DNA from: Escherichia coli
Lineage (GTDB): Bacteria; Pseudomonadota; Gammaproteobacteria; Enterobacterales; Enterobacteriaceae
DNA length: 64,000 nucleotides
Direction: 5' to 3' (one strand)
Assembly: GCF_024298765.1 (NCBI RefSeq)
Contig: NZ_CP101210.1
The position numbers and the translations under genes are program-made. The notes under the pieces are model-generated. The model was not told where the DNA came from and searched no databases. It was given only the letters and a program-made list of their open reading frames with translations. This document shows positions 45,315-53,053 of the stretch, in pieces. The first letter of the stretch is position 1, and the number at the start of each line of letters is the position of its first letter.

Positions 45315-45348
45315 GTTGTGCACATCTATCCGTTTAGACGTCCAGATG
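45315..45348 (-). promoter_or_regulatory. metF operator: tandem MetJ boxes
   Basis: Minus strand reads ACATCTGGACGTCTAAACGGATAGATGT, tandem 8-bp repeats resembling the AGACGTCT met-box consensus, 40-70 nt upstream of the metF start. Confidence 0.6.
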
Positions 45349-45659
45349 TAAAGATGAAGGAAAAGCCGAAGGGCGTCAACCGAAAAATAACCAATGATGG
45401 TGAGGAAAAATCAGGGAAGATGAAAAAAACTCATCTTAATTAGAGGCGATAAAAGATTTCTCTATAGCACAATCCACCTCGCACGTTTTGACTCATATTC
45501 TGACAACACAGCGACACCTGGGCTAATTCGAAAAACAACGTCCTGCCACCGGATGGTGATGCTAAGGCATCTGATTCGGCCTGCGCCCTCGCGTAGGCCG
45601 AATACAGGATCTGCGCAATCAACGGGTAACAAACAGTTGAGTCAATTCAGTGCGCACTT

Positions 45660-47213
45660 TTATTTGATATCCTTCACGCGCATACCGTTGAGCTGTTCAT
45701 CCGTAATGGTGTTGCCCGCTTTGAAGTAATCAACCACCGCGTGATAAACGTAATAACCGCCCGTTGTGTTACGCGCTTTCCCTTCGGTAAAGGCGGTAAA
45801 ACCATCTCCACCATCAGCAAGGAAACTCTGAGTAGCAATGTGATAAACCGTCGCATCTTCAATGGGTTTGCCATTCAGAGCCAGTGTGATTACCCGCTGA
45901 CCAACCGGCTTGCTGCTGTCGTACTTCATTTCCAGGCCTTTCGATACCTGTAAAACGCCATTGCTTAAACTTGCGCCGTGTTCCATCAGACTGCGTAATT
46001 GTTTACCCGTGAGTTCCATCGTCACCAGTTCGTTGGGGAACGGGAACGTACTGATGACGCCGCCCATCGTGATCGCCCCTGCGGGGATCTCATTGCGAAT
46101 GCCGCCAGAGTTGGTTAACGCCAATTGGGTGTTTTTACCCGCCGCTACCAGTAAAGCGTCAGCCGCCAGGTTCCCGAGGGAAGCCGATTCACCATAGGCA
46201 CGTTTTAATTCAACCGGCGATTGCGCCACCGTTTGTTGCACCACTTCATCAAGCTTTTTATTCCAGCCGTCGATCACCTGTTTCGTTTGTGGATCGGGCT
46301 TCCACTCGTCAGCGTAAATGGTTTTAAGCTCGAAGTTTTTCACCGTAAAATTATGCGGCTTCTCTTTGTAGTCGAGAACCAGTTTGCCCACATCAATCCC
46401 GCCGCTGTCAGTGGAGAGGATGAGCGTATTGCCGACTTTAATCGGTTCCGGCGTACCCACATGTGCATGTCCGGTGATCAAAATATCCAGCCCTTTCACC
46501 TGACTTGCCGTCTGAATATCTTTATCCAGCGCGCGACGCACATCTGTGCCTCCCATACTGGACTGGCGGGCCGGAACACCTTCATGGATCAGGGCGACGG
46601 TCAAATCAACCTTGCCTTTAAGTTCATCGATATAACGTTGTAGCCATTTAATTTCATCACGCGCCTCAATACCCACTCGCGTGGCAGCAGATACTGTGTC
46701 ATTAAAGGCAAATACACCGTGCAAACCTATAACGCCTATTTTCACACCGTCTTTTTCGATGATGGTATAGGGCTTATCCCAGAATGATTTACTGCTGTTC
46801 TGATAAAAAACATTGCCCTGCACAATCGGGAATTTTGCCTGACTCAACTGTAATAATGTGTTGTCCCAGCCGTGGTCAAATTCATGGTTGCCTATCGTGA
46901 CGGCATCAAACGGCATAGTATTCATAATATCGATAATAGCCTTACCTTTGGTCAGGCTGCTGATATATGGCCCGGTAAAATAGTCGCCCGCATCAAAAAA
47001 CCATGTCGCTTTATTTTTTGCTTTTTCTTGCTTAACCAGCGTAGTGATATTTGCCCAGCCGCCAATATCCCGTTTACCGTCAGCGATCCACGGCACTTTA
47101 TAAGGTTCTACATGCGCATGGAGGTCGTTGGTATAAATAATAGTGACATCTTTAGCGCAAGCCCAGAACGGCAGTGTTAATGCGATACCCGCAGCAAGTA
47201 TTTTAATTTTCAT
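45660..47213 (-). CDS. Secreted bifunctional metallophosphatase / 5'-nucleotidase, UshA/YfkN-like (paralog 1, about 517 aa); accessory
   Basis: ORF 45660..47219 starts on TTG; first ATG is at 47211-47213. Signal peptide [20 protein letters not shown]|KD. Calcineurin-like motifs [27 protein letters not shown], plus a C-terminal 5'-nucleotidase substrate-binding domain. Confidence 0.85.
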
Positions 47214-47345
47214 AAACAATCCCTTTCAGTGAGATAAAGGATTGCTACATTACGTTCTGAAAGACTTATTTATGTGAGAGTAATCACATCTGCAGGGGAT
47301 AGTTGCCGGACAAAATCAACGACCTTGTGAAATCGTTGGTGATAT

Positions 47346-48470
47346 ATGTCGACTCTGTTTACGATTAATGCCTGTAAAACGTTCGGTTGCCGAAATTTGG
47401 GATTGGCCTCATCGGAAGATTACAGTTGGCCAGACTATAAACTGGGTTATCCGGCACTGCACTGTCGGGCATGTGGCAGTTACCCGCCGTTGTTTGACGA
47501 GCAACAATTTCGTGACTGGTTGTCAGTTCACTTATCTACGTGGGCCTCGGAGAAGGGTCATTTCTGCCCGGTATGTTATGGCACAGACATGATTTGTTAT
47601 GGTCACAATCCACAGGGTTCGCAACGCATTCAATGCCGTAACTGCAAAAAAGTCTGGACGCCTAAACAGTATCAGAAAGAAATTACGCATCCCCAGGCCA
47701 TTGAAACCGTTCAACTGTTCATACCCTTTCAAGGGGCCAGCGCAGTACAAAAACTGTATGTTTTAGTCAGTCTTGACGCCACTCGTGGCAACATTCTTCA
47801 TCTCTCCACGAATTATACGCAACATCAGACAGGAGACAGTCTGCGGTACAGTTACAAGGGCAACACAGAACCAACTATGCACCATCGCGATATCGTGCAG
47901 AAGGTAGATATGCGTGAAGCGCAATTCTTGCGCCGGAGCCAGTTCGATGAAATTCAGTATGGCAGTGCTGTACTCAAGCGCAACGGTAAGGGAGCCATAC
48001 TACGCCCGGTTATCACGGCACACGGGCATTTCAGAATACTGAAAATCCGCTATCCAGATGTCAAAACGCATATTATTTCACACGAATGTTTTCTAAGAGG
48101 CGCAATTATTACAGCCTGGGCAGATCAGTTCCGCCAACAACAAGGTGAACTTTGGTTCGTAGAAGAAGAAATCAGTGACAGTAACGCTGATACGCCCTGG
48201 CATTTTAAGGGAACGACATACCATGGTTGGTGGCAAAATCAGTGGCAGCGCTGGGAGCAGGGGAATAACTGCAAGATGGTCTGCCTACTCACGGGAGCCA
48301 GCTTAGAAAGGGGCGCAAATGTTTCTCTGGCAACCAGTCGTTGTTTTATCACATGGCTGACAGACCAACACGACTTTACCCAAAGCGCGTTATTATCCGC
48401 AGGTCGCGTAACGCAAATGCTGACCTCACTGGCGTTAAAATACAATGAATCGCTCACTCCATCTTGTTAG
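47346..48470 (+). CDS. Cysteine-rich hypothetical protein with two N-terminal zinc ribbons (374 aa), the second InsA/IS1-like; function unknown
   Basis: CxxxxC...CxxC (C10, C15, C40, C43) and CPVC-x19-QRIQCRNCKKVW (C74, C77, C97, C100). The second fits the IS1 InsA pattern CPxC...QRYxCxxCRKxW. No recognisable domain in the C-terminal 260 aa. Divergent from paralog 1. Confidence 0.6.
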   Translation: MSTLFTINACKTFGCRNLGLASSEDYSWPDYKLGYPALHCRACGSYPPLFDEQQFRDWLSVHLSTWASEKGHFCPVCYGTDMICYGHNPQGSQRIQCRNCKKVWTPKQYQKEITHPQAIETVQLFIPFQGASAVQKLYVLVSLDATRGNILHLSTNYTQHQTGDSLRYSYKGNTEPTMHHRDIVQKVDMREAQFLRRSQFDEIQYGSAVLKRNGKGAILRPVITAHGHFRILKIRYPDVKTHIISHECFLRGAIITAWADQFRQQQGELWFVEEEISDSNADTPWHFKGTTYHGWWQNQWQRWEQGNNCKMVCLLTGASLERGANVSLATSRCFITWLTDQHDFTQSALLSAGRVTQMLTSLALKYNESLTPSC

Positions 48471-51913: not shown

Positions 51914-51989
51914 CAAAAACTTATAATACCATTCATTCACTGGATGACATTATTTCTCTCTAAATCAACAATATATAAGAGATATATTT

Positions 51990-52850
51990 ATGTATATAAA
52001 AAAGCACTGGATAGCTTTATCCATTCTATTAATACCTTGCATTGGAAACGCTCAGGAAATTAAAATTGATGAAAGCTGGTTACATCAAAGCTTGAATGTC
52101 ATTGGTCGCACAGACTCTCGCTTTGGCCCAAGACTGACTAACGACCTCTACCCTGAATATACTGTAGCAGGAAGAAAAGACTGGTTTGATTTTTATGGTT
52201 ATGTTGATCTACCAAAATTCTTTGGCGTCGGCAGTCACTATGATGTTGGGATCTGGGATGAGGGCTCACCACTATTTACGGAAATAGAACCTCGGTTTTC
52301 CATTGACAAATTGACCGGATTAAATCTTGCGTTCGGCCCATTTAAAGAATGGTTCATTGCAAACAACTATGTCTATGATATGGGTGACAACCAGTCATCC
52401 CGGCAAAGTACATGGTATATGGGGCTTGGTACAGATATCGACACGGGTCTACCAATTAAGCTTTCTGCCAATATATACGCCAAGTATCAGTGGCAAAACT
52501 ATGGTGCCGCTAATGAAAATGAATGGGACGGATATCGATTCAAAATAAAATATAGCATCCCTCTTACAAATTTATTCGGAGGGCGATTGGTATACAATAG
52601 TTTTACTAACTTTGATTTTGGCTCCGATCTTGCGGACAAGTCACACAATAATAAACGAACCAGTAATGCTATTGCTTCAAGCCATATCCTTTCCCTTCTA
52701 TATGAACACTGGAAATTTGCATTTACACTACGTTATTTTCACAACGGTGGACAATGGAATGCGGGAGAGAAGGTTAACTTCGGAGATGGTCCATTTGAAT
52801 TGAAAAATACAGGATGGGGAACCTATACTACTATTGGTTATCAATTTTAA
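51990..52850 (+). CDS. Tsx-family nucleoside-specific outer-membrane channel paralog (286 aa); accessory
   Basis: Signal peptide [21 protein letters not shown]|QE. Long stretches near-identical to E. coli Tsx as I recall it (FGPFKEW..ANNY.YDMG...[44 protein letters not shown]), with a C-terminal aromatic residue (..GYQF). Confidence 0.85.
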
Positions 52851-53023
52851 ATTAGGTGACATTTTAGATATTGTTACTTAATGTCATTTTGTAATTGTCA
52901 TTAATAACTTCACCATTCACTCTGTTACTTCATCGCTCAACACAAAAGCCCCCTTATTACCGGGGGCACTGACCAAAGGCAAAATGACAATCAATCACCA
53001 CTTCCCCAGGAAGAGGTTTAGGG

Positions 53024-53053
53024 GTGACAACAAAAGCTGGCAACTGCCAGCTT
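53024..53053 (-). terminator. metL intrinsic terminator
   Basis: AAGCTGGCA-GT-TGCCAGCTT hairpin followed by TTTGTTGTCA on the minus strand, 15 nt after the metL stop. A second hairpin GCCCCC-N8-GGGGGC lies at 52948-52967. Confidence 0.65.

Follow-up and report, generated by a model that had tools for sequence, protein, structure and literature searches.

Introduction

The ushA and tsx genes of Escherichia coli K-12 are unlinked. Related genes that lie side by side have been listed in the avian pathogenic E. coli (APEC) strain BEN2908, as a 7.8 kb region designated 'GR 31 metL..metF' that contains a Tsx homolog and three UshA-like open reading frames (ORFs) (PMC12928451, PLoS One 2026). According to the passages of that paper that deal with the region, GR 31 is common to RS218, UTI89, LF82, CFT073 and other strains, its Tsx-like product matches Tsx at 67% and its UshA-like genes match YfkN at approximately 27%, and the role proposed for it is the coordinated processing and uptake of nucleosides (PMC12928451).

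The present analysis concerns the same chromosomal site in a 64,000-nucleotide stretch of E. coli DNA (NCBI RefSeq assembly GCF_024298765.1, contig NZ_CP101210.1), hereafter called the window. Five ORFs are located between metF and metL: three nucleotidase paralogs (nuc1, nuc2 and nuc3), a gene for a cysteine-rich protein (ORF2) and a tsx-like gene. The genomic region is not new and in itself is of little importance; its five genes are annotated in RefSeq and in hundreds of genomes, the nuc1 product is near-identical to a protein of known crystal structure, and the cluster is in print with the same functional idea. A preliminary description of the window had presented it as an accessory island. 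We judge, with a probability of about 0.7, that it is a chromosomal nucleotide-scavenging cluster rather than a mobile island, and that the empty site of K-12 is the product of a secondary deletion.

Results

The K-12 site lacks a 7,640-bp segment

The gene order in the window is katG (-), metF (44388-45278, -), the five ORFs, metL (53068-55500, -), metB (-) and metJ (+). In the K-12 derivative C600 (locus L003) the distance between metF and metL is only 348 bp. As determined by BLAST and by direct reading, homology to K-12 extends from metF to window position 45428 and resumes at 53069, at the metL stop codon, so that the segment absent from K-12 comprises 7,640 bp (45429-53068). In place of this segment K-12 holds 199 unrelated bp with a repetitive extragenic palindromic (REP)-like repeat, which indicates a replacement and not a clean indel. 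When remnants of nuc1 or ORF2 were sought in the 199-bp spacer none was found, only the REP-like repeat (L003 2625-2659), which also matches the window at 29419-29453 and 40071-40104.

The preliminary description had put the K-12 spacing at a few hundred bp and had listed five ORFs of this gene content between metF and metL in a segment missing from K-12, all of which was borne out. The borders that it had drawn (45346-53030) need shifting: the start falls within the conserved metF promoter, approximately 83 bp ahead of the true one, and the end was 38 bp short.

A probable ancestral place of nuc1 and ORF2 between metF and metL

One genome per species was scanned with an ORF2 alignment, and the resulting 37 loci were mapped by tblastn. 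More than 20 species from at least nine enterobacterial genera had the nuc1/ORF2 pair between metF and metL, and in many of these the junction between ORF2 and metL was the same as in E. coli sequence type 131 (ST131). Outside E. coli the layout is metF, zero to two genes, nuc1 (leftward), ORF2 (rightward) and metL. Carriers of this short form were Citrobacter braakii, C. youngae, C. portucalensis and C. werkmanii; Klebsiella pneumoniae, K. oxytoca and K. spallanzanii; Kosakonia, Phytobacter, Superficieibacter, Kluyvera, Pseudocitrobacter and Escherichia whittamii; and Salmonella enterica subsp. arizonae, with a partial ORF2. Across genera the nuc1 product was 88-93% identical in amino acid sequence, a level of conservation similar to that of metF and metL.

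The full cluster was found at the same site in Citrobacter enshiensis, in the order katG, metF, nuc1, ORF2, nuc2, nuc3, tsx-like, one extra gene and metL. Comparison of the window with this genome gave the following nucleotide identities and synonymous divergences (dS): metF, 85% and 1.09; nuc1, 80% and 1.79; nuc2, 85% and 0.94; nuc3, 82% and 1.14; tsx-like, 81% and 1.37; and metL, 85% and 0.95. The identity of ORF2 was 67%, with a saturated dS that could not be computed; katG and metB were 81% and 87% identical, respectively. The ratio of nonsynonymous to synonymous divergence (dN/dS) was 0.02-0.06 for every gene for which it was computable. The low GC content was shared as well: nuc2 and tsx-like have values of 0.386 and 0.389 in C. 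enshiensis and 0.409 and 0.394 in E. coli, and the nuc2 product is 91% identical in amino acid sequence to its ortholog at the C. enshiensis locus.

Since the outgroups share the site and the junction, and since the full form of C. enshiensis has a dS like that of core genes, K-12 is read as a deletion derivative. The preliminary description had left the choice between acquisition and deletion open, as undecidable from the window; the outgroups largely settle it. We conclude that the Enterobacteriaceae ancestrally carried nuc1 and ORF2 at the metF-metL site and that the low-GC trio of nuc2, nuc3 and tsx-like was added long ago between ORF2 and metL. A single insertion of the trio, followed by spread through homologous recombination, is favoured over many losses, as the junction of the short form does not differ between genera.

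The locus also varies in other ways outside E. coli. The extra C. enshiensis gene (L057 11292-12275) encodes 327 amino acids without a Pfam hit, lies between tsx-like and metL, and is not found in E. coli. In S. enterica subsp. arizonae (L045 10001-10726) only ORF2 residues 126-367 were matched and a gap of approximately 950 bp precedes metL; this ORF2 may be a pseudogene or rearranged. In several genera the space between metF and nuc1 holds two inserted genes, one for a LysR-family regulator and one of the carboxymuconolactone-decarboxylase family (L009, L049 and further loci of Citrobacter and Pseudocitrobacter), and E. whittamii and Escherichia sp. MOD1 carry 3-5.6 kb of extra DNA there; the metF side is thus also a variable spot.

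Distribution and age within E. coli

Among 5,426 complete E. coli genomes, nuc1 was present in 1,840. The full five-gene form was found in 658 (12%) and the short form, with nuc1 and ORF2 only, in approximately 1,180 (22%), ST131 (L002) being an example; the site was empty in approximately 3,590, among them K-12 and O157:H7. ORF2 and the 3' end of metL share 37 bp in the short form (L002). The full form occurs in uropathogenic E. coli (UPEC) CFT073 and in APEC strains, and the right part of the CFT073 cluster is 99.6% identical to the window. Within the species the dS of the right part was 0.08-0.15, compared to 0.11 for metL; this similarity indicates that the right part predates the divergence of the E. 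coli phylogroups. The term 'accessory island' is a fair one for presence and absence within E. coli, but it misleads if it is taken to mean a recently acquired foreign element.

In APEC O78:H4 E12049 (H43, NZ_CP126952.1 4894868-4900676) the nuc2-nuc3-tsx part is interrupted by ISVsa5, an IS4-like element. Two matches to the region in the E. coli genome searches were on records labelled plasmid rather than chromosome.

Borders and composition of the segment

The features of the segment and its borders are given in Table 1.

Table 1. Features between metF and metL in the window.
Feature	Position	Strand	Remarks
metF promoter/MetJ-operator region	45279-45428	-	conserved core DNA; left boundary, outside the variable segment
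Left non-coding end of the K-12-absent segment, 3' of nuc1	45429-45659	.	inverted repeat attcggcct...aggccgaat inside
nuc1, predicted exported metallophosphatase/5'-nucleotidase, 517 aa	45660-47213	-	
nuc1/ORF2 divergent control region, 132 bp	47214-47345	.	CRP consensus site 47273-47288
ORF2, cytoplasmic protein, 374 aa, two 4-Cys zinc sites and RNase H-like fold	47346-48470	+	
AT-rich spacer, GC 0.28, upstream of nuc2	48471-48699	+	consensus matches only
nuc2, predicted exported metallophosphatase/5'-nucleotidase paralog, 517 aa	48700-50253	+	
nuc3, predicted exported metallophosphatase/5'-nucleotidase paralog, 541 aa, insertion of ~24 aa	50288-51913	+	
tsx-like, Tsx-family outer-membrane nucleoside channel paralog, 286 aa	51990-52850	+	
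GC-rich hairpin GCCCCC-N8-GGGGGC, then minus-strand T-run	52948-52967	-	terminator-like
Perfect 14-bp palindrome AACAAAAGCTGGCA/TGCCAGCTTTTGTT, between tsx-like and the metL stop codon	53029-53058	.	inverted repeat, 100% complementary

The 150 bp upstream of metF were 98% identical to K-12 and 75-85% identical to all other genera examined. This stretch, including the met-box sequence ttagacgtccagatgtaaagatg, in which the window and K-12 do not differ, is kept in every genus examined, which indicates that the metF operator is intact. The 3' flank of metL is specific to each form, and the palindrome of the window, likely a bidirectional terminator, is not found in K-12. Of the two flanks that had been described as intact, then, the metF MetJ-box region is indeed the same as in K-12, but the sequence at the metL terminator differs between forms. 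A small ORF annotated in K-12 (44 amino acids, 'hypothetical protein', L003 2467-2601) corresponds to window positions 45356-45442; it begins in the conserved metF promoter and crosses the left junction, so that its C-terminus differs between forms (28 amino acids in the window), and it is probably not a real gene.

The GC content of the segment was 0.39-0.48, compared to 0.52-0.58 in the flanks, and the GC content at third codon positions (GC3) was 0.36-0.52, compared to 0.58-0.66. The uneven composition and AT-rich spacers reported earlier were confirmed (48471-48699, 0.284; 51914-51989, 0.237; 52851-52940, 0.289). The composition check suggested at that time does show the segment to deviate from the core, but it would have pointed the wrong way, given that the right part is equally GC-poor in C. 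enshiensis. Consistent with the reported lack of mobility hallmarks, no integrase was found among the window ORFs, no direct or inverted repeats were found at the segment borders (all repeats present derive from the nucleotidase paralogs), and the sole tRNA gene of the window, at 6768-6843, is not near the segment. No Rfam families were found in 44000-54000.

The nucleotidases and the Tsx-like channel

The products of nuc1, nuc2 and nuc3 matched the NCBIfam models for UshA, YfkN, CpdB and 5'-nucleotidase. The scores against the UshA equivalog model (NF007109, cutoff 600 bits) were only 151.9, 168.6 and 156.8 bits, respectively; because these values are far under the cutoff, the earlier label 'UshA-like' holds at the level of the superfamily but not as an assignment to the UshA equivalog. 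The paralogs share 55-66% amino acid identity (nuc2 and nuc1, 58%; nuc2 and nuc3, 55%; nuc3 and nuc1, 66%), and the nuc3 and nuc1 genes form an inverted repeat with 70-75% nucleotide identity. The motifs of dimetal phosphoesterases (DLHAH/DIHAH, DAGD, GNHEFD, IHEG/VHEG and TGHAH) were read in all three translations. Pfam PF00149 (Metallophos) is recorded on orthologs, as is the C-terminal 5'-nucleotidase domain PF02872, in agreement with full-length alignment to 5'-nucleotidase structures. The nuc3 product has an insertion rich in Asn and Asp (SELSLQGLDNDNNNRFDKSSATLKNQ; window 50830-50910, approximately residues 183-206) that is not present in nuc1 or nuc2.

The N-termini of the three proteins, as read by eye, are hydrophobic and signal-like, ending in ACA|KD, VLA|QD and VMA|QD, and are consistent with Sec-dependent export to the periplasm. 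Over residues 19-517 the nuc1 product was 99% identical to PDB entries 3IVD and 3IVE ('Nucleotidase'), the 3IVD construct beginning at residue 19. We take these structural-genomics entries to be CFT073 c4898 bound to uridine and cytidine. Literature searches returned no functional paper on 3IVD or 3IVE, and those that used the CFT073 locus tags c4894-c4898 and the PDB codes returned unrelated catalogue numbers only. After 3IVD, the nearest solved relatives of nuc1 include CD73 and snake-venom 5'-nucleotidases. The dN/dS of nuc1 was 0.03; the GC3 of nuc2 was 0.376.

The tsx-like product scored 492.8 bits on the Tsx subfamily model of NCBIfam (PRK15106, cutoff 311), and Pfam PF03502 (Channel_Tsx) is recorded for its cluster. 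Its closest relative outside E. coli is the C. enshiensis protein (86% identity); all other Tsx proteins were at most 69% identical. As it is located at the metL site and is not near-identical to K-12 tsx, it is a paralog of that gene and not its ortholog.

The nuc1/ORF2 control region

The divergent control region contains the sole match without mismatch in the window to the CRP consensus TGTGA-N6-TCACA (TGTGAGAGTAATCACA). In an alignment of this spacer from 26 loci of many genera, the CRP half-sites were kept in most, and three other blocks (TTACGTTCTGAAAG, CAAAATCA and AAATCGTTGGT) were near-invariant. The centre of the CRP site would lie approximately 41.5 bp from plausible start sites of both nuc1 and ORF2, and a candidate -10 element of ORF2 (CAAAAT) is found at 47311-47316. 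CRP control of the cluster is a prediction. Upstream of nuc2, consensus matches were obtained to a terminator-like hairpin (48543-48567), a promoter-like site (48638-48667) and a ribosome-binding site (AGGAGGG). CRP-like sites were seen in the equivalent spacers at distant loci as well. The pairs CTTTCAG/CTGAAAG and CAACGA/TCGTTG in the nuc1/ORF2 spacer were considered as RNA hairpins and rejected, as one arm varies without compensation while the other is invariant.

E. coli CT30 (L005 4521-5218) and strain CS18F (H31), which are otherwise 100% identical to the window, have a copy of IS1A in this control region. The insertion should disrupt the shared promoter and the start of ORF2, which is annotated five amino acids shorter there.

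ORF2 is a transposase derivative found beside scavenging genes

The fold of the ORF2 product is RNase H-like, of the DDE-transposase/integrase type, with weak Foldseek similarity to EndoV, PIWI and the C-terminal nuclease domain of UvrC. Its eight Cys residues form two 4-Cys sites in which the ligands are conserved. An InsA/IS1595-type zinc ribbon was weakly detected at residues 74-105 (NF050000, 23.2 bits against a cutoff of 28); the Pfam InsA zinc ribbon was likewise weak (independent E-value 0.007), with E≤0.001 in eight of the 52 family members across which conservation was judged. No Pfam or NCBIfam family scored above threshold for ORF2, and PHROGs, PADLOC and Pfam gave nothing past the zinc ribbon and no link to a defence system. 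The only matches from a PDB sequence search with the family profile were to C2H2 zinc fingers; they fell in the Cys-rich part and were set aside as compositional.

Across the family R197 and H228 are invariant, and H246, E/D247, Y168, N156, W296 and W300 are at least 90% conserved. There is no conserved DDE triad; E/D247 is the sole conserved acidic residue, D144 is conserved in less than 75% of members, and no second Asp is conserved. Neither terminal inverted repeats nor target duplications were found around ORF2, a probe from the adjoining nuc1/control region matched at one place per genome in 1,844 genomes, and the dN/dS of ORF2 was 0.15-0.26, which denotes purifying selection over deep divergence. 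ORF2 is therefore regarded as a transposase derivative and not as an insertion sequence. The family is small: 1.84 billion proteins yielded 123 clusters of it at 50% identity. Relatives in AFDB, from Salmonella, Klebsiella, Serratia, Proteus, Vibrio and Photobacterium, bear generic or automatic names such as 'cytoplasmic protein', 'IS1 family transposase' and 'InsA N-terminal zinc ribbon domain-containing protein'.

Eight independent genomic contexts of the family were sampled, including distant relatives of 25-41% identity. ORF2 relatives adjoined nucleotide or nucleoside scavenging genes in seven of the eight, and all eight involved transport or exported hydrolases. In Enterobacteriaceae ORF2 is always divergent from nuc1, with a spacer of approximately 132 bp. 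Three relatives (P0123, 41%; P0132, 37%; P0144, 29%; L052, L055 and L056) are each divergent from a Metallophos/5_nucleotid_C nucleotidase gene. P0142 (29%, L050) is divergent from genes for a class II cyclic-nucleotide phosphodiesterase, a class B acid phosphatase and a porin, the porin gene being the most distal in the leftward order; P0140 (33%, L053/54) from nucleoside phosphorylase and NupC-type transporter genes; and a Motilimonas homolog (26%, L047) from nupC, deoB, talA and deoD, with an adenosine deaminase gene coming after. P0163 (28%, L058 2519-7263) closes an apparent operon in which it follows genes for a Tsx-family channel, a sulfatase and the anaerobic radical-SAM enzyme that matures sulfatases. 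At the Enterobacter locus L010 ORF2 is flanked by an arylsulfotransferase gene, which, with L058, hints at a wider link of ORF2 to exported scavenging hydrolases.

Local regulators typically diverge from their target genes and share a promoter region with them, so that this reading of ORF2 is preferred: judged from its context and its zinc-ribbon domains, ORF2 is probably a local regulator derived from a domesticated transposase. A broader proposal is tentative, and the odds are somewhat against it: that ORF2 founds an uncharacterised family, spread over Enterobacterales, Vibrionales and Alteromonadales, of domesticated DDE transposases that have kept the zinc ribbons and the RNase H fold but lost the catalytic triad, and that serve as dedicated, possibly nucleoside- or nucleotide-sensing transcription regulators of operons in which periplasmic scavenging hydrolases are paired with outer-membrane channels or nucleoside transporters. 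Literature searches on domesticated-transposase regulators of nucleoside genes found nothing relevant.

Recombination within ORF2 and related modules elsewhere

When the window was compared to ST131, nuc1 and metL were 98-99% identical, whereas the last 800 bp or so of ORF2 were 67-78% identical. The jump in identity and dS places a breakpoint inside ORF2, at approximately 47450-47600, and shows that the two E. coli forms have deeply diverged ORF2 alleles. A third allele, with 89% protein identity, was seen in strain 20 (L004). The allelic dS of approximately 1.1 is as large as the difference between E. coli and Citrobacter. The alleles represent either a deep allelic split or repeated recombination between species at a single gene.

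A longer related module (leftward nuc3-like, tsx-like, nuc2-like, nuc2-like and nuc1-like genes, with ORF2 rightward) was found elsewhere on the chromosome in E. albertii, in Enterobacter and in certain genomes of Escherichia and Citrobacter, and some genomes carry it in addition to a copy at metF-metL. Modules of this kind, with four or five nucleotidase/Tsx genes, were observed in E. albertii beside kdsA (L007/L008), in E. coli SCPM-O-B-8794 (L021) and at L020, L043 and L010.

Discussion

The findings can be combined in a single scheme, in which the gene families, their distribution, synteny and divergence, the ORF2 fold and the conserved sites are observed, and the enzyme substrates, the periplasmic location, the control by CRP and the role of ORF2 are predictions from sequence. 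The products of nuc1, nuc2 and nuc3, exported by the Sec pathway, would dephosphorylate periplasmic nucleotides, which cannot cross the inner membrane. A dedicated outer-membrane channel of the Tsx type would ease the entry of substrates or products, and the released nucleosides would be imported by the core transporters NupC and NupG. Transcription would depend on cyclic AMP (cAMP)-CRP, through the consensus site between nuc1 and ORF2 and a weaker CRP-like site before nuc2. ORF2, which is cytoplasmic and combines two zinc sites with a transposase-type RNase H fold that lacks the triad, would act as a local DNA-binding regulator. The history of the locus would begin with nuc1 and ORF2 in the ancestor, continue with the addition of the low-GC trio long ago and end, in K-12-type strains, with an empty site produced by deletion.

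Several observations weigh against parts of this scheme. The nucleotidases score below every NCBIfam equivalog cutoff, so that their substrate specificity is not given by these models. The CRP-like site upstream of nuc2 (48590-48605) has one mismatch, and CRP-like matches over the whole window are no more frequent than expected by chance; the case for CRP thus rests on the exact match and its conservation. For the right-hand trio, an old insertion and repeated loss both stand. The ORF2 alleles of the full and short forms (window 47450-48470 compared to L002 and L006) have a dS of 1.09, while the values for nuc1 and metL are 0.088 and 0.044; this split denotes recombination and is not explained by a purely vertical history. 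The invariant His, Glu and Arg residues of ORF2 could serve catalysis equally well, and the ORF2 relative of L058 is not beside nucleotide genes.

The role of ORF2 bears directly on the first alternative, that it is an enzyme, either a nuclease or a protein that modifies nucleosides or nucleotides, with a remodelled RNase H-like site and a place in the same pathway as its neighbours. The conserved residues of the RNase H-like domain (R197 and H228 invariant, H246, E/D247, Y168 and N156 above 90%), the weak structural similarity to nucleases and the consistent genomic association with nucleoside catabolism would all fit. The divergent arrangement around a shared promoter is typical of regulators, however, and ORF2 has two zinc ribbons of the InsA type, a domain that binds DNA in the InsA protein of IS1. 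It also evolves faster than the adjacent enzymes, and no known step of nucleoside catabolism is lacking. We consider an enzymatic ORF2 unlikely and retain the local regulator as its preferred role.

The cluster could also be a fitness or pathogenicity island, acquired horizontally and fairly recently by E. coli of the extraintestinal pathogenic (ExPEC) type, into a short spacer like that of K-12. Its absence from K-12 and O157 and presence in CFT073 and APEC, its low GC3, its patchy distribution (12% full form, 22% short form) and the related module elsewhere in E. albertii and Enterobacter, which implies that the genes moved at some time, are what such an origin would leave. It does not account for the fact that over 20 species of other genera have the locus at this site with an unchanged ORF2-metL junction, nor for the full form at that site in C. 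enshiensis, where dS equals that of the core flanks and the low GC is equally old. Integrase, tRNA and border repeats are missing, the K-12 spacer has a REP-like repeat without a remnant of a target site, and the right part has a within-species dS comparable to that of metL. A recent island is quite unlikely as an account of the cluster, and for nuc1 and ORF2 it is largely refuted. Outgroup synteny and synonymous divergence show the K-12 state to be derived, and the locus is a clean case in which absence from K-12 together with low GC does not imply recent acquisition.

A third possibility concerns the nucleotidases, which might act on the host by converting extracellular ATP or AMP to adenosine and so damp immunity, in the manner of CD73 or staphylococcal AdsA, as an ExPEC virulence factor. 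The position of CD73 and snake-venom 5'-nucleotidases among the nearest solved relatives after 3IVD and the occurrence of the full form in UPEC CFT073 and APEC speak for such a role. The pair is core, however, in genera of environmental or commensal lifestyle, among them Kosakonia, Phytobacter and Kluyvera, the N-termini are plain and signal-like without a surface anchor, and a Tsx partner and predicted control by CRP are in keeping with nutrient scavenging; a host-directed function is very unlikely. A composite transposon, with ORF2 as an active IS1/IS1595- or IS256-like transposase and the nucleotidase and Tsx genes as cargo, is highly improbable, since the zinc ribbon of InsA/IS1595 type, the DDE-transposase/integrase fold, the presence of the module at several different loci across species and the database name 'IS1 family transposase' on relatives are set against the lack of a conserved acidic triad (D144 not family-wide, no second Asp), of terminal inverted repeats and of target duplications, an adjoining probe found once per genome, family-wide synteny at one locus with a conserved promoter region, a dN/dS of 0.15-0.26 over deep divergence, and only 123 clusters at 50% identity, unlike an IS family.

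ORF2 is the sole element of the locus with real potential for novelty, being conserved, well-folding and seemingly unstudied. If it regulates its neighbours, it would be a bacterial transcription factor of a new type, and one that offers a simple target for genetics in UPEC, Klebsiella and Citrobacter. If the family is one of domesticated regulators, it would provide a rare example of a bacterial transposase recruited for metabolic control and a nucleoside-catabolism regulator beside CytR, DeoR and NupR; the label 'IS1 family transposase' on its members may then be misleading.

Among the closest known systems is GR 31, to which the cluster corresponds in site, in approximate size and in its Tsx-like and three UshA-like genes; the passages of that paper on the region treat it as strain-variable and do not discuss ORF2, the short form, other genera or regulation (PMC12928451). 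With NrtR-type regulators (PMC2330246), as far as that source describes them, ORF2 shares by analogy only the reuse of a catalytic fold, there Nudix, in a regulator beside nucleotide-related genes; the fold and the DNA-binding domain are different and there is no sequence relationship. Compared to the transposases of IS1 (InsA), IS1595 and IS256 (Mutator), ORF2 lacks the DDE triad and inverted repeats, is syntenic and has an extra 4-Cys site upstream. With UshA and tsx and the CytR-CRP regulon the cluster has in common the 5'-nucleotidase fold family, a Tsx-family channel, a CRP consensus site and the logic of dephosphorylation followed by import; in contrast to that regulon, its genes are linked, its nucleotidases score far below the UshA cutoff and its Tsx-like channel is a paralog.

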